From Nitratireductor sp. (GTDB taxonomy: Bacteria > Pseudomonadota > Alphaproteobacteria > Rhizobiales > Rhizobiaceae), in the NCBI GenBank assembly GCA_020441855.1, contig JAGRLL010000005.1:13125-77124 (forward strand): DNA of 64,000 nucleotides, written 5' to 3'. Of this stretch, positions 4,194 through 44,780 are shown piece by piece. Both the position numbers and the translations under genes were made by a program. Position 1 is the stretch's first letter, and every line of letters starts with the position of its first letter. The notes beneath the pieces were generated by a model. That model was given only the letters and a program-made list of their open reading frames with translations. It searched no databases and was not told the DNA's origin.

Positions 4194-4221
4194 TTGCGGT
4201 CCTTGCGGCAGATCCATACGC

Positions 4222-8736: not shown

Positions 8737-8810
8737 TGGAGGCCTCGCCCGGAATCGAACCGGGATTGAAGGATTTGCAGTCCTCTGCGTAACCATTCCG
8801 CCACGAGGCC
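8737..8810 (-). tRNA. tRNA-Cys (anticodon GCA)
   Basis: The reverse complement folds as a cloverleaf: acceptor GGCCTCG/CGAGGCC, anticodon loop CTGCAAA, T-arm CCCGG-TTCGATT-CCGGG, encoded CCA. Confidence 0.9.
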
Positions 8811-11732: not shown

Positions 11733-11818
11733 TGGTGCGGGCACCGGGAATCGAACCCGGACGGCCGAAGGCCGAGGGATTTTAAGTCCCTTGCGTCTAC
11801 CAGTTCCGCCATGCCCGC
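11733..11818 (-). tRNA. tRNA-Leu (anticodon TAA)
   Basis: The reverse complement has acceptor GCGGGCA/TGCCCGC, anticodon loop CTTAAAA, long variable arm CGGCCTTCGGCCG, T-arm CCGGG-TTCGATT-CCCGG and an encoded CCA. Confidence 0.9.
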
Positions 11819-19724: not shown

Positions 19725-20164
19725 CCGATCTCCTGCGCCTGTGCCCATGCTGTGTCGATCGCGGCATCAGAGATACCGACCAAAGGTGCGATCTGGGCGA
19801 TCAACGCATCGTCACGGTGATAACTCGCCGAGCGTTCGAACTTGGCGCGCGCCACGGCGCGCTGTATGTCGTCGGCAATGGCGTCAATCGCGGTCTCGAT
19901 TGCTGCGCGGATGCCGAGAATGTCGAGCATGGCGAAGAACTGCACAGGCGTCAGCGGCGTATCGGTGGGATCGGCAACCGGCGCTGGCACAACGGTCTCA
20001 ATCGCCTCATCGTCAACAATGGCCCATCCGGCGGGTTCGCCTTCGACCGGCGCTCCTACCGGATACCAGGCATATCCCTTCGCCGGGTTCGGATCGGGTC
20101 TGGCGTCATGGTCCTGCGTACGGACGAATGCGCCATCGAGAAAGAGCGCGTACATCATGATCAA
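19721..20164 (-). CDS. Hypothetical protein (possible fibre assembly factor by position)
   Basis: ATGA overlap with the tail fibre gene stop. Confidence 0.4.
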   Translation of the reverse strand: MIMMYALFLDGAFVRTQDHDARPDPNPAKGYAWYPVGAPVEGEPAGWAIVDDEAIETVVPAPVADPTDTPLTPVQFFAMLDILGIRAAIETAIDAIADDIQRAVARAKFERSASYHRDDALIAQIAPLVGISDAAIDTAWAQAQEIG

Positions 20165-22500
20165 TCGTCCTTGAGTGCATCGATTGTGTAGAGCAGCTTG
20201 ACCGCGATAAGCCGCGCATCCTGCGTCATGTCGTCATTGGCGTCGGAGACATCGCGACAGATCCTGAAAAAGCTCATGTCGCCGGCGGCAGGCGTGCCTG
20301 CGATGGTGACGGCGGACGAAACCGAACTCGCCAGCACGTCGCCGGCCGCGCTCTGCGCATCGTCGGTCACGACAACTGCCGTGCCCCATGCCGTGTCGAT
20401 CGGATCGCCATCGGAAATCGCGACGCCCTGCAGATACCAGGCGACGCCCGTGGTTCCGGTCGCCGTCGTGGTCCAGAACGCCTGATAGGTGACGGTGCCC
20501 TCGTTCCAGCCTTTCGGCATGGGGATGGAGAACTGCGCGCACTCGTCGGCCGAGGCGTCGAAATCGAGCACCTTGTAATTGATCGCGTTCGTTGTCGTCT
20601 CGACCTGCGCGGAAGCCGGGCCGCTCGTCGTCGACGACAGCATGGCCCCGGCCGGAATGACGACCGTCTGCAGGGAAAGATCGCCGGTATTGAGTGCGCG
20701 TTTGCCCTCGATCGATATTTCGCCGGAAGCCGAGCGCGCCAGCGTCGTGTCGGATGCGTGGCCAACTTCAATTCCGGTGAATTGCGGACTATCGCCGGTT
20801 CCTACGCCGATTGAAGTCCTCAGCGTTGCGCCGCTCTCGGCGGCGTAGGCCCCTGATCCAGTGCCAACCTGAATTTCACCATCAGCGGTGAAATCTGTGT
20901 CCATCATGGCACCGGCAGCGGCGACGTTGGTGGCGTCGGTGACATCTGCGGCGGCCTCGATGCCGTCAAGTTTCGTGCCGTCAGAAGCAACGTCCCTTCC
21001 GTCGACCGTTCCGCCTACCGCAAGATTGCCGGACATGCCCAGTGTGCCGAGCCCTGCGATGTTGCCGCTGTCGTCGACCGTGACTGCACTGTTCTGGATC
21101 AGCTTGCCGGTCGTGCTGTCGTATCTGGCAATCGCGTTATCGGTTGCCGATGCTGGGCCGACAACATCGCCGGTTCCAGCCCCGGCATCACCTGATCGCC
21201 AGAAATTGACCACAACGGCATCGGAATCTGAAAGCGACCCGTTGGAGGTAACCGGACTGACGGGAACCTTCCTGTAGCCCGTTCCATCCGTCACTGTCCC
21301 CGATACGATGATTTCGCGCCAAATGGCTGGGTCGTCTGCCTTCTCGATCCTGATCGTACCGTAATTGGCAGTTGTGGTGCTGTCATCGAAACTGTCGAGC
21401 CATGTGGTCACGTCTGCGGCGTCGGAGTTCTCGTTGTCGAAATAAATCTCGGTGACAGAACCGAAAGTCGCATTGTCGAACCTCAGGACACCGCTTCCAG
21501 GGTCGCTATCGGTTATCGTCGTGGAGAACGAATAGGCATAACCGGGGATTGAGCCAGTTGCCCCGGTCGCACCCGTAGCGCCAGTCGCTCCGGTCGATCC
21601 TGTTGCGCCCTTGTAATTCTTCCAAAGTCCCGCAAAATCGCCGGCAGATGGTGATGGAACCGCGGTATCCGTGGCGAGAACCGCGATGTAGTCCAGCCCG
21701 GAATCGAAAGTCGTTGTAAAGCCGGTTCCAGATGCATCGCTGGCGTAAGCGATATAGACATAAGCATTCGCGCCATCCGCGCCATCCGCTCCATCTGCCC
21801 CAGATGGTCCGGTTGCTCCGGTCGCGCCAGTGGCGCCGGGACGGATGTAGAGCAGAGAGTAGTCCTGGTCGAGGGTAAGTGATCCGCCGGAAGCGATGTA
21901 GGTCAAGGCGACCTCGGACCAGCCCGTATTATCGGTGTTCGAGGAGACCGTGAAAATCGCGAAGTTCTGTGGTGCGCCGATCTCGGTCAGAAAGATCGTT
22001 CCACCAGAAGCCCAACTGTTGATGAATGAGGAATAATCAACCGCACCAGGGTTTGTTCCGGAATCGTCAATCGCCATCGCCGTGACGGAGGCAATCGTGG
22101 CATTGTCGAACCGGAAATACCCGCCAGTCGGATCAGCCATCGTTGTCGACGTCGAGAACCGGTATCGGATGCCGGCATAACCCGCCTGGGCATCAACGCC
22201 CGCAGCGGACCACGCCCCGTTGGTGTAGCGTTTCAGAACTGCCGGCGAAGACGAACTGTCGAGCCACCAGTCGAATGATGCAGGATCAGGGGCAGATGAA
22301 GCGACCGTACCACCTGAAATCGCGCCGGCTTCAATCAATGCCTTGAGGACGCCATCGGATACAGTCAGCCGCTCGGACTGACTCATCGTGCCGGCGTTCG
22401 GCACGATGATCATCTTGTGGGTTGAGTTCGAGAACGTCGCGGCTTGCGCCGATACGGCCACAATCAGGGCAAAGACGAAGCCAAGAAGGCGAAGCAACAT
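20161..22500 (-). CDS. Tail fibre protein with collagen-like repeats
   Basis: Two G-X-Y runs. VVGPASATDNAIARYDSTTGKLIQNS motif, common in alphaproteobacterial phage fibres. 779 aa. Confidence 0.75.
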   Translation of the reverse strand: MLLRLLGFVFALIVAVSAQAATFSNSTHKMIIVPNAGTMSQSERLTVSDGVLKALIEAGAISGGTVASSAPDPASFDWWLDSSSSPAVLKRYTNGAWSAAGVDAQAGYAGIRYRFSTSTTMADPTGGYFRFDNATIASVTAMAIDDSGTNPGAVDYSSFINSWASGGTIFLTEIGAPQNFAIFTVSSNTDNTGWSEVALTYIASGGSLTLDQDYSLLYIRPGATGATGATGPSGADGADGADGANAYVYIAYASDASGTGFTTTFDSGLDYIAVLATDTAVPSPSAGDFAGLWKNYKGATGSTGATGATGATGATGSIPGYAYSFSTTITDSDPGSGVLRFDNATFGSVTEIYFDNENSDAADVTTWLDSFDDSTTTANYGTIRIEKADDPAIWREIIVSGTVTDGTGYRKVPVSPVTSNGSLSDSDAVVVNFWRSGDAGAGTGDVVGPASATDNAIARYDSTTGKLIQNSAVTVDDSGNIAGLGTLGMSGNLAVGGTVDGRDVASDGTKLDGIEAAADVTDATNVAAAGAMMDTDFTADGEIQVGTGSGAYAAESGATLRTSIGVGTGDSPQFTGIEVGHASDTTLARSASGEISIEGKRALNTGDLSLQTVVIPAGAMLSSTTSGPASAQVETTTNAINYKVLDFDASADECAQFSIPMPKGWNEGTVTYQAFWTTTATGTTGVAWYLQGVAISDGDPIDTAWGTAVVVTDDAQSAAGDVLASSVSSAVTIAGTPAAGDMSFFRICRDVSDANDDMTQDARLIAVKLLYTIDALKDD
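21553..21609 (-). repeat. Collagen-like G-X-Y coding repeat 2 (GATGSTGATGATGATGATG)
   Basis: aa 298-316 of the fibre protein. Confidence 0.85.
21769..21837 (-). repeat. Collagen-like G-X-Y coding repeat 1 (GATGATGATGPSGADGADGADGA)
   Basis: aa 222-244 of the fibre protein. Confidence 0.85.
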
Positions 22501-22563: not shown

Positions 22564-23355
22564 TCAGTACAGCACAACAGCCCACCCATCGCCGCCTGGC
22601 GTGCCCTGGGTGAACATCATGCCGGCACTTCCGCAGCCCGGCGATGGCGCGGTATAGGTTCCGTTGTAGGTCCCGCTGCCAGATAGAAAATCCCGGGAGC
22701 TGGTGAATGGCGGAATCACATCGATCAGGCTGTAGAAGTCCTGGAAAAGACCATAGGCATCGGTCTGGTTTGTTGGTGGCGGATCGGGCGTGGTGACAAG
22801 GGCGCAGACGCCGCCGCATGACACCGAAAAGATCGTTGACACGCCTCTTCCTGCCCCGTCCTGACCATCGACATGCTTGTCGCCGCCCGAACCGCCCGTC
22901 CCTCCCGCGCCGCCATCGATTGCTGCGGCGGCAAATCCAGCGGCGGAAGTAAGACCACCCAAACCGCCATTGACGATAATACTGAGCCCCCGCGGTCCGG
23001 TTGCAGTGCTCTGCCCTCCCGGATTTCCGTTTGAATCAGCACCAGGGATCGCGCCACCGGCGCCGAGAACGATTTCGATCTGCTCGCCAGCAAAAAGAAA
23101 GACCCACTCATACGCGGATTCTCCTCCCCCCCCGCCGGTGGCGTTACGATCCGTTCCGTTGTCTCTGCGCCCACCGCAGCCGCCGCCGGCGCAAATACGC
23201 AGAAAATGCCAACCCGTAACAACCGCGGTGAAGGTGTATGTCCCGGCGCCGGTGTACTCGACGACGTTGGGAAGCAGTGATCCGAGCTGCGGACTGATCC
23301 CGGCATCCTGATTGCCGAGTCCTTCATCGACGAAGGGCGGGGAGAAAAACGACAT
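22564..23355 (-). CDS. Glycine-rich tail fibre-like protein
   Basis: GGGCGG..TGGGGGES..GGAGGTGGSGG tracts. ATG 23355 overlaps the upstream TAA (TAATG); the listed start 23478 is unlikely. Confidence 0.55.
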   Translation of the reverse strand: MSFFSPPFVDEGLGNQDAGISPQLGSLLPNVVEYTGAGTYTFTAVVTGWHFLRICAGGGCGGRRDNGTDRNATGGGGGESAYEWVFLFAGEQIEIVLGAGGAIPGADSNGNPGGQSTATGPRGLSIIVNGGLGGLTSAAGFAAAAIDGGAGGTGGSGGDKHVDGQDGAGRGVSTIFSVSCGGVCALVTTPDPPPTNQTDAYGLFQDFYSLIDVIPPFTSSRDFLSGSGTYNGTYTAPSPGCGSAGMMFTQGTPGGDGWAVVLY

Positions 23356-24095
23356 TACCGCACGTCCAGATGCGACGCGACCTCGATATATGTCGTCGAC
23401 CAGACCTTGTAGTGTAGCACATCGCTTGAGCCCGGCCCGGTGGATAGCGTCGGCGGAGTACCGCCGGTGAATTTCCAATACGTCCCATAGGTCAGGGTTC
23501 GCGATCCAGTTCCGTCCTGAATGACACGGATCGATCCGGATTGCCCGGCAGTCAGGTTCGTCGGGTTGGCCAGGCTGCGGTTTCCTCCAAGCGTAACCTC
23601 GAAATCGTTGCCGTCGTCCATGTCCGGAGTGATGGTGGTGCCATCGGCAAGCGTGACAATGGTGGTCCGCTGGGCCTTTGTGAACGTGTTCACTACTGCG
23701 GTCTGGGCAAGCCCTGAGGTGTGGTTGATCGCTGCCTTGAAGGACGCCTCGTCGGCAGATGCCATCAAGCCGCGCATATAGGACACGAAGGTAAACGTCC
23801 CGAAGGCGTCATCGCCGGTGGCATACAAAGCCTTGTCGGCCGCAAAAGTAACCCCTGCAAGCGCGGTCAGCGTGGCGTCGAGCGCCTGGGCATCGGTGAT
23901 GCCATACCCGTCGAGCGTGGTCGGAAGGTCGGTGATGTCGCCGAAAGAAACCGTGATTGCGGAAATGCGTGCGGCGAGCTGCGAAAGACCTGTCGCGAAA
24001 TCGGCCCATTGCGCCGAAATCTCGAGGGCATCGGCAGATTCGGTGTTCGTCGGAACATCGGGCAGCAGGTTGAAGGTGTCATCGGTGAACGACAT
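23355..24095 (-). CDS. Tail fibre/receptor-binding-like protein
   Basis: Assigned by its position at the head of the fibre gene block. GGAGGGA SD upstream. Confidence 0.45.
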   Translation of the reverse strand: MSFTDDTFNLLPDVPTNTESADALEISAQWADFATGLSQLAARISAITVSFGDITDLPTTLDGYGITDAQALDATLTALAGVTFAADKALYATGDDAFGTFTFVSYMRGLMASADEASFKAAINHTSGLAQTAVVNTFTKAQRTTIVTLADGTTITPDMDDGNDFEVTLGGNRSLANPTNLTAGQSGSIRVIQDGTGSRTLTYGTYWKFTGGTPPTLSTGPGSSDVLHYKVWSTTYIEVASHLDVR

Positions 24096-24145: not shown

Positions 24146-27100
24146 CTAATTACCATCAACCCTGCGCGCCGTTTGGAGATAGGCGCGATTGAACGCCGAG
24201 ATGATCCGCATTTCCTCGTCCTCGATGCGCTTCAACGTTTCCGAACGAGTCGCCGCATCGAGTTTGGCGGCGTAGATCTCGTTTCGCTTCTTCCTGAGGT
24301 CGCGGAGCTTGCTTTGCATCGCGCGGTAACCCTTGGTCTTCATCGCCCCCAGCGCCTTCGTCTTGTCGTCCAGGGCGTCATAGGAAGCGCGATCGCCTTT
24401 CTTCGCAAAGCCCTCGGTCTGGGCTGCGGCCTGTTCGATCTCATCGACGCGGGAATAGAAAATATCGCGGTCAAAGAATGCCCCGGTTCTGCCGTGGACC
24501 CTGCGCTCGAACGGAATGTCGTTCGGATTGATCTCCTCGCCCCGCAGCAATTTTGAGGTCGTGTTTACCGGCCGCCACCATGTCGACACCGCCGCCCCAC
24601 CGATGAATTTTCCGACGTGGTCGATCCATTCCGGGGAAAGATCGACCTTGCCGGGCTTGAATTCATTGCCGCCGGTCCACTCATTCAGCATCGCGGTGAG
24701 ATGTCGCGAAAGCGGTGACACCGAATTGTAGTAGTCCTGGCTGAACGGAATCGTGTCGTCATATTTCGTTCGATCAGGCCTGATCTTCCTGCCTGCAAAA
24801 TCGCTGTTCTGGTTGATCTCGACAAGAGGGTCAGTGATGGTCGGGCTCAGCATCTTCAAAATGGAATCCGACCCGCCGACCGGGTTGAAGGAATCGATAA
24901 AGGTCTCCGCGATGTCGCCCATGGCCACCGCGCCGTCACTGAGCCCCATGGCATACTCCGTCGCCTTCCTGCCGACGGTGTGGAACACGTTGTAGCCATA
25001 CGGTAGCGGGAATTTTACATAGTTCTGCCGGCCACGATCGTCCTTGCCCGGGATCATCACGACGAGATTACGCTGCTTCTCCCATTCTGGGATTTTGGCG
25101 TATTCGTTCTCGCCGTTTTCGTCGTCCTCTCCGAGGAACAGCGCATTGAGCAGGGTCAGCGCGGCCGATCCTGCAACCATGGCGCCGGCAAGATGGCGGG
25201 CCCGGCGGTGCTGCATGGCCTTGAGCATGATGGCGCTGCCTTGCACCCCGGCATTGTAGAACAGGTAGAGCGCGTTCATCGTGGTGGCATACTGCCCCCT
25301 GCGATTGAAATTCACGGTGAGGTTCTTCGCTGCGGATGCGGCATCCTCGACCGACACCCCGCGTTCGCGCAGGTTCTTGAACAGTGAGAGCCGCACCGCG
25401 TTGTCGACGGCAAGGTTCATGTCCTCGATGACCTGGCCAAGCGCCTTTATCCCCTGCCAGACCTTGCGATAATCCTTCGCACTCATCTGGCGGGAGATTT
25501 TTTCGAACTTCGCCCGAAGATCCTCGATGCCATCGAGCTTGTAGAACGACACCTTGCCACCAGAGCGTTCGAATTCGCGGAAGACCTTGCGCCATTCCGT
25601 GGTCAACGGCTTGCCCCTGAGACCGCCCCATGCGCCGCGCATCGCGCCGAAATAGTCCTTGAGCACGGCCTTGGTGAGACCTTTCTGGTCCATCGTTGCC
25701 ATGTGGACGCCGGCAGTCTGCAAATCTCGAATAGCGTTCGATACCAAAAATTCCGGGTTAAGAGACGTGTTCATGGTCGACAGGAAGCGATTGAAACCGA
25801 TCATGAATTTAAGCATGCCGTTGAGGTCTTCGGCATTGAGCCGTTTGATCGCCTCTCGCAATCTTTCGTCGTTGATGACGATACGGTGCTCCACTCCCTT
25901 GAACTTCACCGAAACGGTCTTGTCGGCTTCGCCGGCCGCAATCGGGCTTTCCGCTCTGGAATAGACCATGCCGGTGGCACGATTGAAGACCTGCTTCATG
26001 CGAACCGGATTGATCTCCCAATAGTCCTTGTTTGGGTGTGCCTTTGCGAGATCGAAGAGCCTCTGGACGACACGGTTCTTTTCCCCGCGTATCACGGCCT
26101 CCTGGGCGACGGTAAACGCGGTGGCAAGGATATCCCCGGCCTTACTTTCCCGGCCGAGGGCGCGACGGCTTTCCGGCCCGCGCGCGGTGAACCCCTTGCC
26201 GACATTCGGAATACCGGGATCGGCTTCGTCGACTTCTTCGAAACCACGCAGCGGGACATAGTGCTGGTATTTCTGCCATGCCTCGGCGGCCTGCTCCGAC
26301 AACAGGCCTGCGTCTACGCGGGCACGAACAGATTCACGCATCATACGGTCGACGAGCTTGCCGATCAGTTCGTAGGCACCCGATTGTTCGGAACTCTTGA
26401 TGTCGCGCAGAATCCCCCTGGCCTCGGCATCGCTCATGCCGGACCCGCCATCCTCAAAATTGGGGTTGATCGATGCGATGTGTTCGTTTCGCTCCTGCGC
26501 ATGCCGAGCATAGAGGTATTCTCCGACATCGTCCTGATTGAGCCCGCTTTCGCGCATCAGGTAGCCGATCGGCTCGACATAGCGCCGCGTGATCCGGTCC
26601 AGACGCGAACCGACGCGGCCGGTATACATCTCTTCGGCGAGGTAGACCTTCATGCCTTGCGGAAGCTGATCCCCGGTGAAACGCTCGATGGCTTCCTCGA
26701 CGCGAAGGACCGGAAGGAAACGATCCTGAAAGTTGACCCGCCATTTGTCGATGGCGGTCTGCATGGCCTGTGCTGAAAACGCGGCGCGGAACCTCGCGGC
26801 CAGTTTGATGTTGGCGTTACGCAGGATTTGGAACGTGCCGCGATCCGGAACATGCCATAGCGATGCCGACGGCTCTTCGAACTTGCCGACATCTTCAAAA
26901 AACCCGTCTCTCAGGCCTTCTTCTTCCTCGAAATCACGGCGCGCGCCCTTCGGATCATCTCGTCCCTGATCATGCTTTCGGGAAGACCCTCGACTTCCTT
27001 CAAGAAACTCTGCCAGGTCTCCAAGGTGTCGAGCGGGCTGGGTTCGTCGATTAGCCCTGCCGATATTGGTTTTTCCGCCATTGATCAGTTGCTCCATTCG

Positions 27101-30100
27101 TTTCGCGATATCCTCGATCGCAGCCTTCTTCGCTTCGACGAATTCTGGATCGGTCTCGAGATCGGTCGTCAGTTCCGTCGCGTAATCGATCATGCCGGAT
27201 TCGCGCAGGATCAGGTTCATGAGATGTGCATCGACAGCCTGTGCATCCTCGATCTTCATCTTGCCCGACGATGTTCTCTGGTTGAGAATGCGGTAGCCGA
27301 CAGCGTATGCCCGTTCTGCGGCATCTCGCAGCCACAGCAAATTTTCCCTTGCCGGATATCCCATCAGAGATTCGCGGACATCGCGATTGAGCGATGCGCG
27401 GAAACTGGTGCCGTTGTGTCCATGGGCGTAGACCGCATAAATGCCCGGATTTGCCAATTGCATGATGTCGGCAGGACTCAGCGAATGTGAGGACGGGTGA
27501 TTGTGGTGGACGATCAGATGAGCGTCCTCGCGCCTGATCTGCGAAAGCATTTCCTCGGTGAATTGGACGTTGTTTTTTGATCCGGAATTAACGCCTATTC
27601 TGTTGCCATGACCATCGATCATGACGAGGTGCTCAACGCCATCGCGCTTGCCAGCTTCGACGACATGGCGCTTTGCCGCTTCACCTGGGCCATCATAATG
27701 GCCGGCGGCATCCTCGAAGTCCTCTCCCTTGCTGCCCACGGCAACAATGTCCCTACCGGTCAGGACGTTGCGCATCGTGGTTTCGAAGCGTGACGGATCG
27801 AGCGGCACGAAATACCTGCCACGATAATCGATACGCTCGAACATCGCGCCGGCGGCCTGGATCGCGTTGCGGTCGGAATAGGCGTCCTTGGGAACGATCT
27901 CGATGCGCGCACCGCCATCCACCATGGAGGACTTCAATCGCCAGCCATTCGACAACTGGATGACGCCGCCGTCCAGGACTCGTTGCCTGATCTCGGCCGG
28001 GGACATTACGATCTTCTTACCCTCGGCGCCGAGATTGCGCAGCACTTCGGCCACCTGCCCTGTTCTCAGGACGCGACCAAGCAGCACTTCGCCGTCGTCG
28101 GCCTTCATCCTGTAGATCCGCATGTTTTCGCCGCGCGGCAGGCGGTCCCAGATCGGCAGGATCGCACCAACGATCATGTTCACGGTTTCATTGCGGTATT
28201 CCGGTGACTCCTCGACACGCTTGTCCCAGTCCGTTTTCGCTTCCGCCTCTCCGACTTCTTCGTAGGCCGCACCCCAGCCCGTGACGTCCTTGGCGTCGAC
28301 AAGATCGGTGCGCAGCGGCGAGAGCCGGCGGAACTGGTCAATGATCGCACCGGTTTCCCTGTCAGTCCTTGGTTTGGCCTCGACGAAACCGTAGAGCGTG
28401 CCTGAGCGTTTGTTGCGCGCCCATTTCTCGATCTTCTTCCCGCCAAAACCGTCCTTCACCATTTCCCATGTCAGCGGGTCATTGCGGTGCGACAACTCGA
28501 CTTCGACAAGGCGTGTTTCCGCGCCGCTCTTGGGATCGGTGAAGACGACACGGTCATCCTTCTTTTCGGATTTGTCCGCGCGAATGGTTTCGATGCCGAG
28601 ATCAGCGTCGCCACGCTGTTTTGCCGCCTCGATGTTATCCTGCAGCCGGTCGACGAACTCATTGAACAAACGGTTTTGCCGTTCGATCGTCATCGAGAGG
28701 ATGCGATTGAGAAACTGCGGGATTTCTGGAATGGCTGTATCGTTGAACGCGCCGGTCTCGGAATTGATGAGTTTCAGCCCGAGTTCACTGTTGATCTGCG
28801 AAATATCGAGGCCAGGCACATTGCCGCGCGCGATATCGTAGAACATCGTACGCATTGCATCCTTGGCGTAGTCCGATTCCAGATTGTCGAGTGCCGTGAA
28901 CATGCCTTGCGAGCCGGCATCGCGCTGGCCTTTGGTCAGTGCCCCGAGTTGATCCAGTCGTCGCGCGATCGAGGAGACGAAACGCTTGTGGCCCTGAATA
29001 TCGGTGGAAACAGTATAGTAGTGCGGCGCCGAAGCCTGTGCGGTGCGATGCGTACGGCCAAACCCTTGCACTGCCTTGTCCGCGCGCCATCCAGGCTGCA
29101 CCAGATAGTGCTTTCTGCGCTTCTGGTTCCGTTGGGTAAGGTCGGCATGGTAGGATCGCCCTGTGCCGCCGGCATCGGAGAAAATCAGGATGTCCTTGTC
29201 ACCCGACATGAATGCATCGGTTTCGGCTTCGTTGGCCCGGGCGCCGCGCTTTTCGATGACGCGCTTTCCTCCCTTGGTGACAATGCGCCTGCTGCGCCCC
29301 GTTACCTCTGCAACCTTGTCCGCCCCGAAATGATCGATCAGGGTTTCAAGCGGGCCATCTGGAACCTTGATCGTGGACAAGCGATCCAGCAGGTCTTCGC
29401 GCATCGCTACGGCCTCGGCATTCTCGACCGGGTTGCCGTTTGAATCGGTAACAGGTCGCGAGCGCTGGTTTCCGTCCTCGTCGACATAGGATTCATGCTG
29501 CGCCACGGGAAACGAGTTCTGGACGTAGGCCATGAGCTGTTCGCGCGGGGTAAGGTCCAGGTCCTCGAGATCGGACTGGTCCTCGATTTTCGCCAAAGCG
29601 CGCTCGGTCGAGGACTCATTGGTGTTGACGATCTGCATTACAACAGCATCGCCGGCCGCAAGGTCCTTTTCCGCCTGCCTGATCACGCTCGGCATCTGCA
29701 ATGCAGTCAGGACCTGGTTGAAGAACCGCTGGTGCGATCCCCAGAACGCCGATAGCGCCGCCGATTTCGCGTTGGCGTTTGCTGCTCCCTCGGAGACCTT
29801 GAGCGCTTCGTTGACGCGCTCAAGCACGCTCTGCCATGACTTCGCAAGCGTGTCGTAGATCTCGCGCTGCGGCGCGGTGAGCGCGTGTTCCAGTTTCGAG
29901 TAGGAGACGCCGTCATAGGACAGTGAGCGCGCCTGATATGATCCAAGTGCCTTGAGATCGCGGGCAACGAGTTCCATCGCCGCGACACCGCCCTGCGTAA
30001 CCTCCTGAATGAACTTGTCACGGCTGGCAAACGGCGTGCCGAAGCCCCAGAGACCAAGCCTTGAAGCATAGGAAAGGTTCGCGACTTCCGTAGCGCCCGT

Positions 30101-33100
30101 TGCCGAGACATAGACCACTCTTGCATTGGGAAGACGCTTCTGCAGTTCCACCCCGGCGAGCGCGGCTTGTGACGGCTTCTTCTTTCCGCGTTTGCCCTTC
30201 ATCTCAACGGCATTGCCCATATTGTGGGCCTCGTCAAAGGCGATTACGCCGTCGAAATCCTTGCCGAGCCAGTTCACAAGCTGGGCAAAGTTCGAGTCCT
30301 CTTTCTCAAAGGTCTTCGCCAGCGTGGAATAAGTCGTGAACAACACGCCCTCACCTGCATCGATCGGCTTCGAACGATTGACAGACTTCTGGGAGATCAG
30401 CAGCGAGGCATCGCCGCCGGCGCCTTTCATGTCGCGCTTGGCATCATTGAACAGCGGCCATTTTTCCGAAATCCAGACATGCTTCTTTCGGCCCTGGGCA
30501 AGGTTGTCCATGATGATGCCGGAAATCTGGCGACCCTTGCCGACACCGGTGCCGTCTCCGATGAAATAGCCCCTGCGCTCCGCCTGCTCGCCTGCGGGGG
30601 CGGGAAGCATCTCCTCATGCGCCTGACCGGCATAGACCACGTTCTCCAACTGCGCATCGGAAAGCAGGCCATCGTCAATCGTCTTGTCGGGGAGATGCGG
30701 CGCATAGGTCGCCTTTGGCGGGACCACGGAACCCATAGCCGCACTTTGCACGAGCTTGGACGGATGCGGTTTTGCGCCCTTGATACGGGCCCGTTGGGGC
30801 CTGTAGTTCGAGAAGATCGATTCCGTCAATTCCTCGTCGGTCTTCCCGACGTCGGCTGCTTCCTCGACGGTTACGCGCTTTCCAGCATCCTGATCTTTAC
30901 GTTGATCTCCTCGAGGAGATGCGCCGCCGCCTCGATCGGCGTCAACCCTTCCAGCGCTTGCGCGATCTCGTTCGGTTCGTTCTCGGCGTCCGTCACCAGC
31001 CAGGTCAGCGCCTGACCCGGCGTTTTGGCCTGCAATTCCTCCACCATTGTCTGGAACGGTACTGCGGCCAGTTTCGTCGGCTCGATTTCCCCGCTCTCCA
31101 CCGCCCAACTCAGGAGTTGCAGGACGTGCATCTGTGTCGGGTCCGGCGTCTCGCCGGCTCGTCTCAGCAATGCTTCCGCCTTGCGATTCAGCGGGTCCTT
31201 GTTCTGCAACAGAACGGGTGTCATGGACATCTTTGAGCGCCTCGAATAGCGGTTCCAAGGCAACCGCTTCCTGGTTGATCATGGGCCGCGATTGTGTCGG
31301 CCCTGTGTTGTCGATGACCCAGAGCCTTGTGTCGTAGGTCGTATCGAACTTCCCGTATTCCTTTCCGTCGACGCGGACACCGGCCCTGATATTGTATTTC
31401 TTTGCGGTCTCTGCAAACCATTTCGCGACCTTGCGGTTGCCGGAATGGAAGGTGTAGCCCGTGATAGCGACCAGTCTGCCGCCGGGTTTCAGCCGCTTCA
31501 ATGCCTGATCGATGTGCTTTCGCGTGAGATCGGCGCCCTCCGACATGCCCCGCGTGCCGGCATTGCCGAACGGCGGGTTCATGACGACAACATCGGCCAT
31601 GACATCCTTGGGCAGGATGTTGTTCAATTGCTCCGCGTTCTCGGAATAGACCTTGTCGAATCCCATGGCGTTGAGGCTTTCGACCCTGCGCGCATCGATT
31701 TCGTTGACGATGGTCTTTGCACCGGCATTCTTGGCGAACACCGCGATACCGCCATTGCCAGCCGACGGCTCCATTACCGTCTCGCCGGGTTTGATGTTTG
31801 CCAGCCAAGAGGCAACAAAACCGTATTGAGGTGGCGTCGAGAACTGCTGGAATGCATCGGTGTCGGCGTCACGGCTGCGCTGCCGCGGCAAACGGTCAAG
31901 CATTTCGGTCAGTTTAACGAAAGCGTTAACGTGATCATTTGCCGGATTGAACTGGTCTGGGTTCCGCGAGATATACAGGTTCAGGCCGAGTTCCAGCGCT
32001 TCGTAGGCGTCCTTGGTGGCATAGGCTCCCTGTGACACCGTTCCGCCATACGCCCTTTCGACGATGGCGCGGACCCGCTTCTTCATCGTCGGCATGTCGA
32101 GACCATCACCGAACAGGTCGGAGATTTCGCGCGCGGCGCGGACATGCGGCGTACCTTCGCCGGCCGGCGCCGTTTCGTTCCCCGTCGCGGGTTCGTCGAT
32201 CTTCCCGGGCTTCTCTTGCACTTCATTTCGCACCGATGCGCCTGCAACAGGAGCGACGGAATCAAGCCATTTCAATGCGGCTTCCGCTTGTTCCTTCTGC
32301 GCCTTCGGACCCGAGCCCTTGACTGCGTCAGCGAACTTCCCGCGCAGACTCGATATTGCTGCATCAAGCGCTTCCTGCCTTTCCCCGAAGAATGGCGGAC
32401 CGGACAACGGGTTCGTGCCGCCAATTTCGGGTAAATGATAGGCTCGACGCGCCACCCATCGGTTCGGTGCGACCGCCAGGAGTTCTATTTCGGCAATCGG
32501 CGCATGAGCGCCTTTCATCGCGAAGCGATCGCCGTCCTTGACGTCATCGCCGGAGTAGACGCCGCTATCGTTCGGCTCTGGCCAGTTCGCCTCGTCTTCC
32601 TTGGCCTCGCGCAGCACCTTCGCGCGCCGCACGGCGTCATCGAGAGCACCGGCATAGCCTCTGTCGGCGTCCATCTCCATTATGCGCGCAAGTTCGCCGT
32701 GGCCGTTGTCTTTCAGCCATTGGTGTGCTTCGGCCTGTTCTGGGGTGAATGCTGGCTTGACCTCTGCCGTTGGAGGCGGTTCCGTGGCCTCCGGCCCTTT
32801 CCGGGCTATCGGCTCTTCCGGATTGGCCTGCCCGCCTTCCGGTATTACCCCGGCCATGAGTTGGGCCAGCGTGCGCGATCCGGGGGTGCCGCGTCCCGGG
32901 TGCGGCTTGTTCTCTTCGTGTCCACCAACATCGCGTGCGGAGGCATCGGAATTTTCAGCGCTCGGAAACTCCCCGATGATCGGAAGCAGCTCCTTAATCG
33001 GCTTGCCCAAACGGATTATGTCGACCGGCTCGCCTGCATTCCGTTTGGCCAGCCATTGATGGTGACCATCGACAACATGATTGTCACTCGAAACAAGTAT

Positions 33101-34720
33101 TGATCGATCACCACCCTCGAAATTTTCGGCCTTCTTGACCTTCTCCGGCGAGAATTCTGCCTGTGTCGGCTTCAAGGTGTCTGCGGCGACCGTCTCCGAG
33201 GTGTGGCCAACGCCCTTCCCGCCAAGGAAATTCACCATGGCACCGCGATGCTCGGCCTTGATCTGGGGCATGTCCACCCGAGGAATGCCAATCGTTCCGG
33301 ATTCCGGAGAAAATGACTCCCACTCCATGGTTTGCGTTGGAACTTCCCCTACCGGCTCTGCCGGCGGTGGTGCTTTATTCTCGCGCTGACCGACAATGGC
33401 CGATACGATATCGTCGGCAACTGGCCGCTCTGCTCCACGCGCTTCCTGTCCGCTGTTTGCCTGTCCTTCCGCAGGGGCGGGCAACAGATACGGATTTGCC
33501 ACGGGTGACGCAGCATCCTTACGAACAATGTCAGCGACAGCTTGCGCAGGCTGCTCAACAATGTTTTGCGTCGTGGCGGCGTCTGGTTTCTGTCGCGCAA
33601 CATTGTTCAGCGCCACATCGGTAGATGTTTGAACATTGTTTTCTTTCGATTGAGGCTTTGGTTGCGCATCGAGCACGCTTTGGTGCGGTCTCTCGCCGGC
33701 AGGACGGACGCGGTTCGTGGCCTCGTGCCAGAAGCCTGGCTCCTCCTGCCCGGTGGCGGGATCGATGATGCTGATTTCCTGCTCGCCCTGTAACGGCCTA
33801 GAAAAATCGTAGTTCTCTGTGGTCTCTGCTTGCTGCTCCGGCGCAGGGCGCACGACTTCGCCGTCGATCGTCACCGGCTCCGGGGCGGCCTGTTGCACTT
33901 CGGGGCCCGGCGGTAGACCGAGCGGTGGCAGGATTTCGCCGCTAAGTCCGTCCTGCGGCTGCTCGCCGGTTTCCTGACGTGGCGCATTTCCGGCAAGGCC
34001 CATCGTTCCGGAGATCGGCGCACCGAGGATTGCGCCAAGCAGTGCATTGTAGGCGACGTCGTCGGTTCTTCCGCGTTCGGTGTCATAGCCGGCGACATCC
34101 TTGGCGATGACGTTCTGACCGAATTGCTGGAAACCTTCCTGTGCCCCTTCTTCTGCGGCACCCTTGAGCGAGTCCTTGATGAACTTCGTAAAGGCGCTGG
34201 TCATGTCTCCCGCGATTTCGTGGGCGGCCGGCGCCGCGCGGCCCATGAACCTGCCGATCGGAATTGCCTCGGACAGACCCAGCGCAGAGTTGAGGCCGAA
34301 CGCCGTGCTTTCCTGATCCGGTGTAGCCCCGTGCTGCCTGGCCTCATCGAGGCCTGCGAGCCCTTGACTGGTTGATCCGAGCAATGCCGCCAGCCCTGTG
34401 GCAACCTTCGGACCAGCACCAACGATGCCACCGGGGGCCATGAACCCGGCCATTGAACCTGCCCCGGATGCCAGATCCCGCCCGATACCCTCATAAGACG
34501 GATCGATAGGAAATGCCTTGTCGATACCGCCCTCGATGCTTTCTCCGGCCCTGGTCAGCATATCGCTGCCAAACATCTCGCCAGATGCCCGCACCGGAGA
34601 AGCAATGACCTTTGCCAGGGAAGATACAAACCGGTTCGACAGGTCTGCGTCGCTCGTGATCGTCGGTTGCTGCTGCTGACCGAACAGATCGTCGAATTCC
34701 TGCTGGGTGATGACCGGCAT
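24146..34720 (-). CDS. 3524-aa polyvalent protein (ParB-like + N6-MTase + Sbno/SNF2-like helicase + RadC/JAB-like + C-terminal membrane module); DarB-like candidate anti-restriction virion protein
   Basis: One uninterrupted ORF. Motifs were verified at nucleotide level: NPPF at 31568-31579 and DEAH at 30224-30235. See the domain sub-features below. Confidence 0.85.
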   Translation of the reverse strand: MPVITQQEFDDLFGQQQQPTITSDADLSNRFVSSLAKVIASPVRASGEMFGSDMLTRAGESIEGGIDKAFPIDPSYEGIGRDLASGAGSMAGFMAPGGIVGAGPKVATGLAALLGSTSQGLAGLDEARQHGATPDQESTAFGLNSALGLSEAIPIGRFMGRAAPAAHEIAGDMTSAFTKFIKDSLKGAAEEGAQEGFQQFGQNVIAKDVAGYDTERGRTDDVAYNALLGAILGAPISGTMGLAGNAPRQETGEQPQDGLSGEILPPLGLPPGPEVQQAAPEPVTIDGEVVRPAPEQQAETTENYDFSRPLQGEQEISIIDPATGQEEPGFWHEATNRVRPAGERPHQSVLDAQPKPQSKENNVQTSTDVALNNVARQKPDAATTQNIVEQPAQAVADIVRKDAASPVANPYLLPAPAEGQANSGQEARGAERPVADDIVSAIVGQRENKAPPPAEPVGEVPTQTMEWESFSPESGTIGIPRVDMPQIKAEHRGAMVNFLGGKGVGHTSETVAADTLKPTQAEFSPEKVKKAENFEGGDRSILVSSDNHVVDGHHQWLAKRNAGEPVDIIRLGKPIKELLPIIGEFPSAENSDASARDVGGHEENKPHPGRGTPGSRTLAQLMAGVIPEGGQANPEEPIARKGPEATEPPPTAEVKPAFTPEQAEAHQWLKDNGHGELARIMEMDADRGYAGALDDAVRRAKVLREAKEDEANWPEPNDSGVYSGDDVKDGDRFAMKGAHAPIAEIELLAVAPNRWVARRAYHLPEIGGTNPLSGPPFFGERQEALDAAISSLRGKFADAVKGSGPKAQKEQAEAALKWLDSVAPVAGASVRNEVQEKPGKIDEPATGNETAPAGEGTPHVRAAREISDLFGDGLDMPTMKKRVRAIVERAYGGTVSQGAYATKDAYEALELGLNLYISRNPDQFNPANDHVNAFVKLTEMLDRLPRQRSRDADTDAFQQFSTPPQYGFVASWLANIKPGETVMEPSAGNGGIAVFAKNAGAKTIVNEIDARRVESLNAMGFDKVYSENAEQLNNILPKDVMADVVVMNPPFGNAGTRGMSEGADLTRKHIDQALKRLKPGGRLVAITGYTFHSGNRKVAKWFAETAKKYNIRAGVRVDGKEYGKFDTTYDTRLWVIDNTGPTQSRPMINQEAVALEPLFEALKDVHDTRSVAEQGPAESQGGSIAETSRRDAGPDTDARPATPELGGGERGNRADETGRSTVPDNGGGIAGQNAGSGADLAGDGRRERTERDRASAGRVDADRGGGASPRGDQRKDQDAGKRVTVEEAADVGKTDEELTESIFSNYRPQRARIKGAKPHPSKLVQSAAMGSVVPPKATYAPHLPDKTIDDGLLSDAQLENVVYAGQAHEEMLPAPAGEQAERRGYFIGDGTGVGKGRQISGIIMDNLAQGRKKHVWISEKWPLFNDAKRDMKGAGGDASLLISQKSVNRSKPIDAGEGVLFTTYSTLAKTFEKEDSNFAQLVNWLGKDFDGVIAFDEAHNMGNAVEMKGKRGKKKPSQAALAGVELQKRLPNARVVYVSATGATEVANLSYASRLGLWGFGTPFASRDKFIQEVTQGGVAAMELVARDLKALGSYQARSLSYDGVSYSKLEHALTAPQREIYDTLAKSWQSVLERVNEALKVSEGAANANAKSAALSAFWGSHQRFFNQVLTALQMPSVIRQAEKDLAAGDAVVMQIVNTNESSTERALAKIEDQSDLEDLDLTPREQLMAYVQNSFPVAQHESYVDEDGNQRSRPVTDSNGNPVENAEAVAMREDLLDRLSTIKVPDGPLETLIDHFGADKVAEVTGRSRRIVTKGGKRVIEKRGARANEAETDAFMSGDKDILIFSDAGGTGRSYHADLTQRNQKRRKHYLVQPGWRADKAVQGFGRTHRTAQASAPHYYTVSTDIQGHKRFVSSIARRLDQLGALTKGQRDAGSQGMFTALDNLESDYAKDAMRTMFYDIARGNVPGLDISQINSELGLKLINSETGAFNDTAIPEIPQFLNRILSMTIERQNRLFNEFVDRLQDNIEAAKQRGDADLGIETIRADKSEKKDDRVVFTDPKSGAETRLVEVELSHRNDPLTWEMVKDGFGGKKIEKWARNKRSGTLYGFVEAKPRTDRETGAIIDQFRRLSPLRTDLVDAKDVTGWGAAYEEVGEAEAKTDWDKRVEESPEYRNETVNMIVGAILPIWDRLPRGENMRIYRMKADDGEVLLGRVLRTGQVAEVLRNLGAEGKKIVMSPAEIRQRVLDGGVIQLSNGWRLKSSMVDGGARIEIVPKDAYSDRNAIQAAGAMFERIDYRGRYFVPLDPSRFETTMRNVLTGRDIVAVGSKGEDFEDAAGHYDGPGEAAKRHVVEAGKRDGVEHLVMIDGHGNRIGVNSGSKNNVQFTEEMLSQIRREDAHLIVHHNHPSSHSLSPADIMQLANPGIYAVYAHGHNGTSFRASLNRDVRESLMGYPARENLLWLRDAAERAYAVGYRILNQRTSSGKMKIEDAQAVDAHLMNLILRESGMIDYATELTTDLETDPEFVEAKKAAIEDIAKRMEQLINGGKTNIGRANRRTQPARHLGDLAEFLEGSRGSSRKHDQGRDDPKGARRDFEEEEGLRDGFFEDVGKFEEPSASLWHVPDRGTFQILRNANIKLAARFRAAFSAQAMQTAIDKWRVNFQDRFLPVLRVEEAIERFTGDQLPQGMKVYLAEEMYTGRVGSRLDRITRRYVEPIGYLMRESGLNQDDVGEYLYARHAQERNEHIASINPNFEDGGSGMSDAEARGILRDIKSSEQSGAYELIGKLVDRMMRESVRARVDAGLLSEQAAEAWQKYQHYVPLRGFEEVDEADPGIPNVGKGFTARGPESRRALGRESKAGDILATAFTVAQEAVIRGEKNRVVQRLFDLAKAHPNKDYWEINPVRMKQVFNRATGMVYSRAESPIAAGEADKTVSVKFKGVEHRIVINDERLREAIKRLNAEDLNGMLKFMIGFNRFLSTMNTSLNPEFLVSNAIRDLQTAGVHMATMDQKGLTKAVLKDYFGAMRGAWGGLRGKPLTTEWRKVFREFERSGGKVSFYKLDGIEDLRAKFEKISRQMSAKDYRKVWQGIKALGQVIEDMNLAVDNAVRLSLFKNLRERGVSVEDAASAAKNLTVNFNRRGQYATTMNALYLFYNAGVQGSAIMLKAMQHRRARHLAGAMVAGSAALTLLNALFLGEDDENGENEYAKIPEWEKQRNLVVMIPGKDDRGRQNYVKFPLPYGYNVFHTVGRKATEYAMGLSDGAVAMGDIAETFIDSFNPVGGSDSILKMLSPTITDPLVEINQNSDFAGRKIRPDRTKYDDTIPFSQDYYNSVSPLSRHLTAMLNEWTGGNEFKPGKVDLSPEWIDHVGKFIGGAAVSTWWRPVNTTSKLLRGEEINPNDIPFERRVHGRTGAFFDRDIFYSRVDEIEQAAAQTEGFAKKGDRASYDALDDKTKALGAMKTKGYRAMQSKLRDLRKKRNEIYAAKLDAATRSETLKRIEDEEMRIISAFNRAYLQTARRVDGN
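27371..27643 (-). other. RadC/JAB-like metalloprotease motif region (aa ~2360-2450)
   Basis: HHNHPSSHSLSPAD resembles the RadC HNHPSG..PS..D motif, with a spacer one residue shorter. Confidence 0.45.
28961..30703 (-). other. Strawberry-notch/SNF2-like helicase domain (aa ~1340-1920)
   Basis: Walker A GDGTGVGKGR, DEAH box, FSDAGGTGRSYH, QGFGRTHRTAQ (motif VI-like). Confidence 0.75.
31316..31858 (-). other. N6-adenine DNA methyltransferase domain (aa ~955-1135)
   Basis: Motif I VMEPSAGNGGIA and motif IV VVMNPPFGN. Confidence 0.8.
32996..33313 (-). other. ParB/Srx-like nuclease domain of the giant protein (aa ~470-575)
   Basis: LKPTQAEFSPEKV ... ILVSSDNHVVDGHHQW (DGHHR-type motif). Confidence 0.6.
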
Positions 34721-39508: not shown

Positions 39509-40324
39509 CTAGATGTCTGCATCGCCCGTGGGATAGGTGTCGGACGCATCGCCGGTGATGTTGACCGCAAGTTCGCCTATCGGCCCGCGCCGCCTCTGCG
39601 TCACGCTGATATTGGCCGGACCGCCGTCATTGGTCGCAAAGGCGAAGTCCATGGCGCGCCGATATTGCTCCTCCTCAACGGCGTAAGGCTTGCCGCTGTC
39701 TCGCAAAAGGCGGAATCTGATGCCCTTGCGCAGCGTTTCGTCATCGAGAACGAAGGTGTCGTCGTTGCGCGTGAATGACGCCTTGTAGCCGGCCGCCGCA
39801 GCCGTGGCGTTCCAGTAACCAAGCCCCCAACTGAATGACCCCCAGACATAGCCGCCGGCGCCGTAAACCAGATAGTTCGAGATATAGTCGAACTCGTAGT
39901 TCACCCCGCTCGCGGTCGGGGTCGGGTTGATATAGATTTTCGATCCCTTGACGCGCCAGCGCGGCGTCACCCCGCTGCTGATGCTCCAGTTCTTGAAATA
40001 CCGCCAATCGCCAATACCGACCGGACCCATTCCGCGTTGCTTCGGCGGCGATCCAACTCCCCAGAAGGTTTCAGGAAGCAACCTGTGAAAGTCTGCAGGG
40101 AGGTCGTAGCTCTCCTGTCCGGCAACCGATGTGATGGTTGCCTGGGATTCAAGAGCATTCCACGACCGCTTCAAAAAATCCTCGACCGTCTCGAGAATGG
40201 CAAGTTCGGCGATCTCGACCGTTCTGGTCTTGCGCGCCGAAGCCGAAAACAGCGTGGTCACCGCCGGCAGGGATGTGCCGATGCGGGCCTGGTTGACGAT
40301 TTCCAGAATGCTCTTGCTACCCAT
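39509..40324 (-). CDS. Virion structural protein (adaptor/tail-like by position)
   Basis: In the structural operon. Contains a QESYDLPADF motif seen in phage neck/baseplate-like proteins. Confidence 0.4.
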   Translation of the reverse strand: MGSKSILEIVNQARIGTSLPAVTTLFSASARKTRTVEIAELAILETVEDFLKRSWNALESQATITSVAGQESYDLPADFHRLLPETFWGVGSPPKQRGMGPVGIGDWRYFKNWSISSGVTPRWRVKGSKIYINPTPTASGVNYEFDYISNYLVYGAGGYVWGSFSWGLGYWNATAAAAGYKASFTRNDDTFVLDDETLRKGIRFRLLRDSGKPYAVEEEQYRRAMDFAFATNDGGPANISVTQRRRGPIGELAVNITGDASDTYPTGDADI

Positions 40325-44448: not shown

Positions 44449-44780
44449 AGGACGTCCATCCCTACATCTCGTGCTGCTTGTTTGATCTGCTCGATGCTGC
44501 GTTTCTTCTGCGCAGCGGTGCGGACCGGTTGGTGTTTCTTTGGTCTCTCGTTTCCGAGCTCGACCAGGTCGTGGCGTCTGAGGTGATCGCGGTGTTTGGA
44601 CCGCGACGTGATCACCTCCCCGGTAACCATGGATTTGTACGGCTCGATGTCGCGGATCAGGCGCGGCGAGGGCAGATCGGAAGCATTTGCCCCGGCATCG
44701 GATCGGACCGCCTGCCGCCTCGCATAGACCTCGGGCGACACCCATTCCTTGGCGACCTTGTCGAATACGCTACGCGCCAT
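44445..44780 (-). CDS. Small basic head-module protein
   Basis: Lies between the portal and scaffold genes. Confidence 0.45.
   Translation of the reverse strand: MARSVFDKVAKEWVSPEVYARRQAVRSDAGANASDLPSPRLIRDIEPYKSMVTGEVITSRSKHRDHLRRHDLVELGNERPKKHQPVRTAAQKKRSIEQIKQAARDVGMDVL

Follow-up and report, generated by a model that had tools for sequence, protein, structure and literature searches.

A Predicted Polyvalent Giant Virion Protein With a Plasmid-Type Methyltransferase-Strawberry Notch Cassette in a Prophage of Nitratireductor sp.

The Giant Gene and Its Reading Frame

The window analyzed here, a stretch of 64,000 nucleotides of contig JAGRLL010000005.1 from Nitratireductor sp. (assembly GCA_020441855.1), holds a prophage that spans ~11.8 kb to the window end and, in the late virion operon of this prophage, a giant gene for a protein of 3524 amino acids (aa). 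Two virion-type genes and three fibre-like genes flank the giant gene, all on the same strand (Table 1), which agrees with the place in the virion module given to it in a preliminary description of this DNA. The encoded protein belongs to the phage-type giant internal virion proteins known as "polyvalent" or "DarB-like", which have been treated by Iyer, Burroughs, Anand, de Souza and Aravind (2017, PMC5512222), by Hardies (2016) and in the papers on the phages Bcep22 and JC1. What is specific to the present copy is a plasmid-type cassette of a DNA methyltransferase (MTase) and a Strawberry notch (Sbno) ATPase, inserted en bloc, a JAB-like domain belonging to a large family without a Pfam model, and a middle part that is swappable between kept termini.

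The gene is a single unbroken frame from ATG to stop. It is preceded by a GAGG Shine-Dalgarno sequence, and 1 nt before its ATG the upstream gene ends in TAG, which indicates translational coupling. An identical 3524-aa sequence (P0038) is present in a public representative protein library, and the giant reading frame is thus not peculiar to the present assembly; the single open reading frame (ORF) reported in the preliminary description is confirmed. Because of the length of this ORF and its low-complexity linkers, we weighed whether it might result from an error in assembly or annotation, or be a prophage gene fusion in decay and without function. No positive support for this was found, and it is highly improbable: the frame, not split by any frameshift, is intact together with its ribosome-binding site, its coupling to the upstream gene and its catalytic motifs, independent relatives align across the MTase-Sbno-JAB and the JAB-to-C-terminus junctions, and comparably large ORFs (2076-5729 aa) are found in 25 of the 26 IMG/VR contigs with a matching Sbno segment. 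A frame of 10.5 kb in DNA of ~59% G+C, with homologues spanning the MTase-to-JAB and JAB-to-C-terminus junctions, is neither a chance ORF nor a frameshift artefact. Within it, the motifs stand exactly at the positions first reported, namely DGHHQW at 551, VMEPSAGNGG at 982, NPPF at 1048, GDGTGVGKGR at 1388, DEAH at 1496, QGFGRTHR at 1885 and HHNHPSSHSLSPAD at 2405. The homologue searches described below were run segment by segment, not with the full-length protein.

Table 1. Positions in the window of the giant gene, of the segments of its product and of other prophage and border features.
Feature	Position	Strand	Basis or remark
Giant gene, 3524 aa, polyvalent giant virion protein	24146-34720	minus	Stop codon 24146-24148
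aa 1-250, Gly/Ala-rich conserved N-terminal module	33971-34720	minus	Hydrophobic stretch aa 226-244
aa 251-469, Pro/Gln/Glu-rich linker, probably disordered	33314-33970	minus	Composition; no family matches
aa ~470-600, predicted ParB/sulfiredoxin-fold domain, DGHHQW at 551-556	32921-33313	minus	AlphaFold2 model and Foldseek
aa 601-936, linker and small conserved segment just before the MTase	31913-32920	minus	No family matches; MTase-adjacent part kept in IMG/VR relatives
aa 937-2310, complete plasmid-type MTase-Sbno cassette	27791-31912	minus	MTase, variable linker, Sbno ATPase, C-terminal extension
aa 951-1140, predicted S-adenosylmethionine-dependent amino-methyltransferase	31301-31870	minus	Motif I VMEPSAGNGG 982, motif IV NPPF 1048
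aa ~1170-1290, Gly/Arg/Asp-rich linker inside the cassette	30851-31213	minus	Composition; the plasmid homologue has a gapped, non-conserved linker here
aa 1318-2045, Strawberry notch superfamily 2 ATPase	28586-30769	minus	AAA_34 1318-1624, Helicase_C_4 1790-2045
aa 2046-2310, Sbno C-terminal extension	27791-28585	minus	
aa ~2345-2580, JAB/RadC-like metalloenzyme domain and helical extension	26981-27688	minus	
aa ~2558-2577, R..P..(V/L)RH.GD(L/V) motif	~26990-27050	minus	Closes the JAB-like domain in many relatives
aa 2581-2619, charged linker	26864-26980	minus	Follows the semi-conserved R..P..(V/L)RH.GD motif
aa 2620-3524, conserved C-terminal module	24149-26863	minus	Of 933W, Bcep22 and Ruegeria 45A6-type giant virion proteins
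aa 3176-3198, hydrophobic helix, candidate membrane-inserting segment	25127-25195	minus	Hydropathy scan
aa 3204-3404, LPD38 (PF18857)	24509-25111	minus	Pfam 1.6e-41, 142.9 bits vs cut-off 27
Two genes upstream of the giant gene, 417 aa and 371 aa	34722-37074	minus	Same operon
Virion structural protein, 371 aa	35959-37074	minus	"Virion structural protein" PHROGs
Amidase-like protein, 501 aa	37384-38889	minus	PHROG "amidase" 4e-46; within virion module
Tail protein	39509-40324	minus	
Major head protein	42333-43301	minus	
Portal	44770-46950	minus	
Large terminase	46950-48500	minus	
Small terminase	49712-50470	minus	
Three tail-fibre-like genes downstream of the giant gene	23355-24095, 22564-23478, 20161-22500	minus	PHROG tail-fibre matches
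Stand-alone N6/N4 DNA methylase	54733-55956	minus	
GapR-like DNA-binding protein	55938-56735	minus	Adjoins methylase
DnaN-like sliding clamp	56736-57845	minus	Adjoins GapR-like gene
RtcB-like RNA ligase gene	12416-13795	plus	Phage side of border
tRNA-Leu(taa)	11733-11818	minus	Apparent chromosome/prophage border
tRNA-Cys	8737-8810		

A Plasmid-Type Methyltransferase-Strawberry Notch Cassette

The Sbno assignment is the strongest of the four domain calls. This ATPase matches the Pfam families AAA_34 (3e-115) and Helicase_C_4 (1.5e-90), its Walker A, DEAH and motif VI sequences are intact, and its C-terminal extension is 29% identical over 292 aa to the corresponding part of P0002, an Sbno protein fused to ArdC, and is aligned in the plasmid protein discussed below as well. 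The MTase in front of it scores 23.7 bits against a cut-off of 23 for the Pfam family MTS, stays below cut-off for Eco57I and UPF0020, and matches the PHROG "DNA methyltransferase" at 7e-23. With its motifs I (EPSAGNGG at 984) and IV both intact, it carries the marks of an N6-adenine/N4-cytosine amino-methyltransferase and is predicted to be one. Both calls had been made in the preliminary description, and these scores and intact motifs bear them out. The Gly/Arg/Asp-rich linker noticed at the same time is also real, as aa 1201-1300 have 20 Gly, 13 Arg and 12 Asp residues per 100 aa.

As a whole, the cassette aligns end to end with WP_322343552, a free-standing protein of 1460 aa from a Sulfitobacter pontiacus plasmid that is described as "bifunctional methyltransferase/helicase" (40% identity over 1420 aa by BLASTP). 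On this plasmid (NZ_CP139705, 768-12134) the MTase-Sbno gene lies among DUF932, two RadC, DUF6878, antitoxin and toprim genes. RadC is thereby the product of a neighbouring gene on the Sulfitobacter plasmid; the phage cassette, for its part, runs straight on into a JAB/RadC-like domain of the same polypeptide. Judged by these alignments, the cassette is of plasmid origin and was inserted en bloc. The plasmid MTase/Sbno proteins are free 1460-aa products expressed from the plasmid, whereas the counterpart described here is embedded in a virion protein and would therefore arrive ready-made.

Among 50,697 deposited phage genomes, none has a match to the Sbno segment (1003 aa). Matching plasmid records number 594, of which 313 are conjugative and which include Sulfitobacter and Phaeobacter plasmids, and the segment is found in the 26 IMG/VR contigs mentioned above, where the one match outside a giant ORF is weak and partial. 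A copy of the C-terminal module is detectable in eight of these Sbno-bearing IMG/VR ORFs. A search of the flanks of the IMG/VR loci for the structural genes of this phage found none, the 10-kb flanks being mostly occupied by giant ORFs. In addition, the metagenomic proteins P0040, P0178 and P0154 unite MTase and/or Sbno with a JAB-like domain and LPD38. The initial view that the domain combination is unusual stands insofar as, with Sbno included, it is absent from deposited phage genomes, but not with regard to its recurrence in 26 IMG/VR contigs and several metagenomic clusters. The combination is thus uncommon, not unique.

The N-Terminal Region and the ParB/Sulfiredoxin-Fold Domain

The Gly/Ala-rich module at the N-terminus (aa 1-250) has no Pfam match, and a word-index search with the N-terminal 260 aa found no homologue. 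By phmmer among the collected proteins, two giant proteins with the C-terminal block, P0080 and P0050, begin with a region ~42% identical to this module. For the domain at aa ~470-600, no Pfam or PDB sequence match was obtained, even with a 16-sequence profile, so that its assignment rests on an AlphaFold2 model and a Foldseek search. The core of this model has predicted local distance difference test (pLDDT) values >90. The top 15 Foldseek matches in the PDB are all ParB or sulfiredoxin (Srx) structures, among them pNOB8 ParB-N (E 2.7e-3), Noc, ParB-CDP, Atu1540 and sulfiredoxin, with E-values from 2.7e-3 to 0.17 followed by a gap to E>3.7, and with Foldseek probabilities of 0.60-1.00 (at least 0.92 in 14 of the 15). 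A ParB/Srx fold is supported by this modelling.

The region had first been called a ParB-like nuclease, of which the fold stands and the activity does not. The Arg of the G-x-x-R motif is replaced by Gln (DGHHQ) both here and in all aligned relatives that cover the motif except P0030, which has DGHHR, and the label "nuclease" is therefore unwarranted. Homologous ParB-fold domains are present in H66 gp60 (1.5e-54) and Bcep22 gp75 (3.4e-37). The ParB-fold domain of the giant protein has no match to the DdrB-like ParB family (PF18763); P0020 is the sole aligned relative that matches PF18763, probably in its N-terminal extension outside the common region.

A JAB/RadC-Like Domain From a Large Virion-Associated Family

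Downstream of the cassette lies a domain whose family alignment (26 sequences) has invariant E2363, H2406, N2407, H2408, S2415, D2418 and Y2513. The invariant E..HxH..S..D is the JAMM signature. The domain has no Pfam match in the giant protein, where the threshold of RadC (PF04002) is not reached; weak matches to Pfam RadC occur in 9 of the 26 members (best E 1e-3), the profile of the family matches the PDB structure 2qlc of RadC at E 0.29, and direct reading of the sequences reveals that the loop from HxH to S is one residue shorter than in RadC. The AlphaFold2 model has a pLDDT of 83, and its best Foldseek matches in the PDB are PfJAMM1 (probability 0.97), RadC and AF2198, at weak E-values of 0.12-0.6. 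In the viral structure library BFVD, 15 structures match at E<=1e-3, and about half of these are annotated as "minor capsid proteins". On this basis the domain is accepted as a RadC-like member of the JAB superfamily. The preliminary call of a RadC/JAB-like motif is borne out both by the invariant signature and by the JAMM1, RadC and AF2198 structures that head the list of matches.

Exhaustive HMMER searches at E<=1e-3 place 623 representative clusters in this family. Most members lie inside proteins of 1500-6000 aa, and others form the C-terminus of ~450-600-aa proteins that start with a MuF minor-capsid domain, from sipho- and myoviruses. The present protein draws attention to a detail, a large JAB-like family lacking a Pfam model and tied to virion-anchoring modules. 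Note also that the R..P..(V/L)RH.GD(L/V) motif, which is followed by the charged low-complexity linker, might be a processing site.

This leads to the question of whether the JAB-like domain is a peptidase acting in cis, and the giant ORF a polyprotein that is cut, during assembly or after ejection, into N-terminal enzymes and a C-terminal ejection protein. The full metal-binding and catalytic signature of JAMM proteins is invariant across the family, no zincin HExxH peptidase is present elsewhere in the giant protein, and the domain is close to the C-terminal module, the two being direct neighbours here and roughly 30-95 aa apart in nine other giant proteins; in the minor capsid proteins it lies between MuF anchor and C-terminus. 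The semi-conserved motif and charged linker behind the domain would fit too, and Iyer et al. (2017) proposed peptidase processing of polyvalent proteins. However, the motif HNHPS...S..D is of the RadC type, and the same authors considered RadC proteins, which are without the ubiquitin-tail groove, likelier to be nucleic-acid enzymes. Moreover, the adjacency is not universal, as in several relatives the JAB-like domain is 300-2600 aa away from the C-terminal module or is present in two copies, like those of P0039 (2251 aa), which lie ~160 aa apart at aa 155-412 and 576-842; nor is a cleavage site defined. We consider such a polyprotein unlikely.

Conserved Ends and an Exchangeable Middle

The C-terminal module is homologous to parts of virion-associated phage proteins. 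It is matched by PHROGs 14770, 10691 and 616 (E 1e-146 to 1e-174), each time by the last part of a profile of 2800-3900 aa, and by tblastn it is found in 342 phage records, 323 of which cover at least 80% of the query. The best phage relative is Ruegeria phage 45A6 (1.8e-130); 933W p72 matches at 2.6e-103, and Bcep22 gp75 aligns end to end by hhalign (E 2e-80 over 825 columns). The hydrophobic helix at aa 3176-3198 has a basic N-side and an acidic (DDENGE) C-side, a pattern kept in all 18 aligned C-terminal modules.

Two kinds of relatives reveal how these proteins are built. P0080 and P0050 share with the present protein aa 3-452 and the contiguous aa 2346-3520 (56-58% identity in the latter block) and differ in the middle, while in P0154 and P0053 it is the ends that differ, the common contiguous block (41-45% identity) starting at about aa 840-877 and running to aa 2513-2589. 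The two blocks overlap in the JAB-like domain, and the family can therefore be described as conserved ends with exchangeable cargo. As a side observation, P0053 (4188 aa) has LAGLIDADG/Hom_end homing-endonuclease (intein-like) matches in its C-terminal region and an inorganic pyrophosphatase domain. The conserved parts, the N-terminal ~250 aa and the contiguous JAB-like/C-terminal block of ~1175 aa with LPD38, would constitute the scaffold of the protein. The fusion of enzymes to a structural module, at first considered unusual, turns out to be the defining layout of the family, with its 342 phage records, its LPD38 domain and its termini kept while the middle changes. Cargo fused to a structural module is the rule for the giant-virion-protein class and no oddity.

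If one takes this layout further, aa 2346-3524 might be a platform of general use for "deliver and release", in which the C-terminal part brings the protein out of the capsid and anchors it in the membrane and the JAB-like enzyme cuts the chain to free the upstream cargo, with the same release domain serving MuF-anchored cargo in long-tailed phages. The cargo would here be a whole anti-restriction machine captured from conjugative plasmids, and the processing enzyme so far missing for virion-delivered effectors would be this unnamed JAB family of 623 representative clusters. This is a speculative extension, and we give it an even smaller chance than the polyprotein.

Relation to Known Giant Virion Proteins

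Polyvalent proteins were defined by Iyer et al. (2017), who found LPD38 to be restricted to phages, proposed delivery with the DNA, and described the MTase-helicase dyad, ParB-like and RadC domains and an occasional Sbno ATPase. Like these phage-type proteins, the giant protein combines several unrelated effector domains with LPD38 and is encoded among late/virion genes. Differently from them, its ParB-fold domain is not of the DdrB-ParB family and it has no zincin peptidase. In the work of Hardies (2016), the large proteins of the F116 group (H66 gp60, VT2-Sakai orf71 and BcepMigl gp69) are homologues of T7 gp16 (IVP-D) with intracellular enzyme domains, "reminiscent of N4 gp50"; joined family profiles were needed for the gp16 link (E 8e-19). 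In N4 gp50, the virion RNA polymerase, the terminal regions serve injection and encapsidation and the central enzyme acts in the cell (Iyer et al., 2017; Hardies, 2016). N4 gp50 and T7 gp16 resemble the present protein in being large proteins ejected from podovirus capsids, as is presumed here, and they differ in cargo. No significant homology was detected between the C-terminal module and T7 gp15, used as a single-sequence template.

Close published parallels come from the Bcep22-like phages (Lessievirus podoviruses), in which a "DarB-like antirestriction protein" is encoded at the end of the virion module (Bcep22 gp75/JC1 gp69, 4515-4602 aa). According to the JC1 paper, gp69, a close homologue of Bcep22 gp75, was detected in purified JC1 virions by mass spectrometry. 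These proteins share with ours the C-terminal ~900 aa, the ParB-fold domain and the place of the gene at the end of the virion module. However, no Sbno or JAB-like domain was detected in Bcep22 gp75 with the segments of the present protein, the MTase and helicase that it carries differ in type, and the head module of the Bcep22/JC1 phages is different. The large late protein of 933W/VT2-Sakai (NP_049532, 2806 aa, "LPD5 domain-containing protein") and the 3912-aa protein of Ruegeria 45A6 have the C-terminal module and LPD38 in common with it, at 34-39% identity over >90% of the 924-aa query. The 45A6 protein also has a JAB-like domain, an MTase and a syntenic upstream gene (31% identity to our 371-aa protein). 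In contrast, the N-terminal cargo of both proteins differs, and neither has the Sbno cassette. The label "PLxRFG protein" was tried and rejected: the "PLxRFG" C-terminus of H66 gp60 is not detectably homologous, and the NCBIfam PLxRFG model finds no match.

P1 DarB, a protein of 2255 aa, is a capsid-packaged MTase-helicase that protects against type I restriction. The present protein follows the same general logic, an MTase and an SF2 (superfamily 2) helicase in one polypeptide that is packaged, here presumably so; it differs in that P1 is a myovirus and DarB is without the C-terminal module. The packaging of DarB depends on DarA, Hdf, DdrA, DdrB and Ulx (JC1 paper). The DarB parallel drawn in the preliminary description holds as an analogy only, as homology was rejected: phmmer gave no match at E<=0.01 with any segment, and hhalign, run with the C-terminal module profile alone, a probability of 0.25%. 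A toolkit packaged, injected and fused to an ejection-type module, as the same description had it, agrees with the published accounts of the homologues; its interpretation is right in substance and overstates the unusualness, and is in this sense partly supported. No paper showing a function for any such giant virion protein was found in the literature.

Proposed Role in Genome Entry

We favour the reading that the giant protein is a packaged and ejected toolkit of a temperate short-tailed phage, integrated in a chromosome of alphaproteobacterial type, and regard this as probable. The scaffold would bring a small number of copies into the capsid or core and, as the DNA leaves through the tail, take the protein along. 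The hydrophobic helix possibly enters the inner membrane, as proposed for internal virion proteins of the T7 gp16 type. The middle section would reach the cytoplasm at DNA entry, ahead of any phage gene expression. There, the ParB/Srx-fold domain might bind nucleotides, and the MTase-Sbno unit, whose source lies in establishment genes of conjugative plasmids, might translocate on the incoming DNA and methylate it or strip restriction complexes, as proposed for P1 DarB, or may act on host complexes. The JAB/RadC-like metalloenzyme may process nucleic acid, or may cut the chain and free the cargo from the membrane-bound ejection module. That counter-restriction is the main purpose of the MTase-Sbno unit is a tentative part of this scheme, plausible and held with clearly less confidence than the scheme itself.

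Several observations favour such a toolkit. The gene stands in the late operon and is translationally coupled to its upstream neighbour. The C-terminal module recurs in 342 phage genomes, the Bcep22 gp75 type included, and JC1 gp69 is virion-associated; the ParB-like domain is shared with H66 gp60, annotated as "verified by mass spectrometry as part of the virion", and related large proteins were linked to T7 gp16 by Hardies (2016). P0080 and P0050 keep both ends (aa 3-452 and 2346-3520, 57% identity) around a swapped middle, and the MTase, Sbno and JAB catalytic motifs are all intact. The likeness of the cassette to a plasmid gene that is 40% identical and surrounded by RadC, DUF932, antitoxin and toprim genes points in the same direction, as does the JAB-like domain, whose occurrence at the C-terminus of MuF-type minor capsid proteins suggests that it travels as virion cargo.

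A different purpose has to be weighed at this point. The giant protein could be chiefly an ejection or structural protein whose enzymes serve phage DNA metabolism and not counter-defence, for example by pulling the DNA in, by marking the genome for replication or packaging, or by starting replication or recombination. As an SF2 DNA-dependent ATPase, Sbno could be the motor of DNA import, and the prophage has a separate DNA methylase (Table 1), so that protective methylation may not require an MTase in the virion; early-replication roles for ParB-like and helicase domains were also weighed by Iyer et al. (2017). Yet the nearest relatives of the cassette are plasmid genes that stand among establishment and anti-defence-type genes, and the cargo is freely swapped among close relatives, which is more in line with accessory functions in conflict than with a core function in entry. 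We thus rate the metabolic purpose as improbable.

Other points tell against the packaged-and-ejected toolkit itself. Its packaging, its ejection and its anti-restriction activity are steps that we infer. P1 DarB, the sole functionally studied analogue, is without detectable homology. The link to T7 gp16 drawn by Hardies (2016) was not reproduced, as hhalign of the 18-sequence C-terminal profile against the single sequence of T7 gp16 gave a probability of 0.9%, and H66 gp60, for which mass spectrometry is annotated, has no detectable C-terminal module. The ParB-like domain lacks the conserved Arg of G-x-x-R. Finally, the relatives of the portal protein are found in Myxococcus phage Mx8, the Brucella Tb-like podoviruses and Ruegeria phage 45A6, and not in 933W or F116. 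By sequence, this supports a short-tailed phage but not a head of the 933W/F116 type; with a portal of the Mx8/Brucella Tb type the phage is a mosaic, and what has been deduced for the F116 group carries over solely via the giant protein.

In many temperate podoviruses, Shiga-toxin phages included, 15-20% of the genome is devoted to giant virion proteins of the present type, and the present copy displays their build of two conserved ends and an exchangeable middle. It also shows that a protein of phage particles has taken up a complete gene unit of conjugative plasmids. The shielding of DNA during its first minutes in a newly entered cell would then be a need that plasmids and phages meet with one and the same enzyme, supplied in one case as a gene and in the other as a ready-made protein. 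What the protein offers is a well-defined test case; it neither establishes a new principle nor overturns current views.

Other Features of the Prophage and Its Border

Besides the virion set, the prophage carries RtcB-like, lysis enzyme, DUF1376, S24 repressor and RecT-like genes. In the virion module, the 501-aa amidase-like protein may be a virion-associated cell-wall hydrolase that aids the giant protein during entry. The stand-alone methylase gene is followed by a GapR-like gene, GapR being typical of alphaproteobacteria, and by that of the DnaN-like sliding clamp. The GapR-like gene, the relationship to Ruegeria phage 45A6 and the Sulfitobacter and Phaeobacter plasmid matches hint at an alphaproteobacterial host resembling Rhodobacterales; among GTDB representative genomes, a scan yielded no close relative. 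On the other side, the window from 1 to ~11.8 kb is chromosomal in look, with glycosyl- and sulfotransferases, a fatty-acid desaturase and two tRNA genes, and the phage RtcB beside the tRNA at the border might repair or replace tRNAs cleaved by host anticodon nucleases. The G+C content is 53-55% in positions 1-8000, as against about 60% in the remaining window, and this outer part, with its glycosyltransferases and sulfotransferases, looks like a surface-polysaccharide island beside the prophage.

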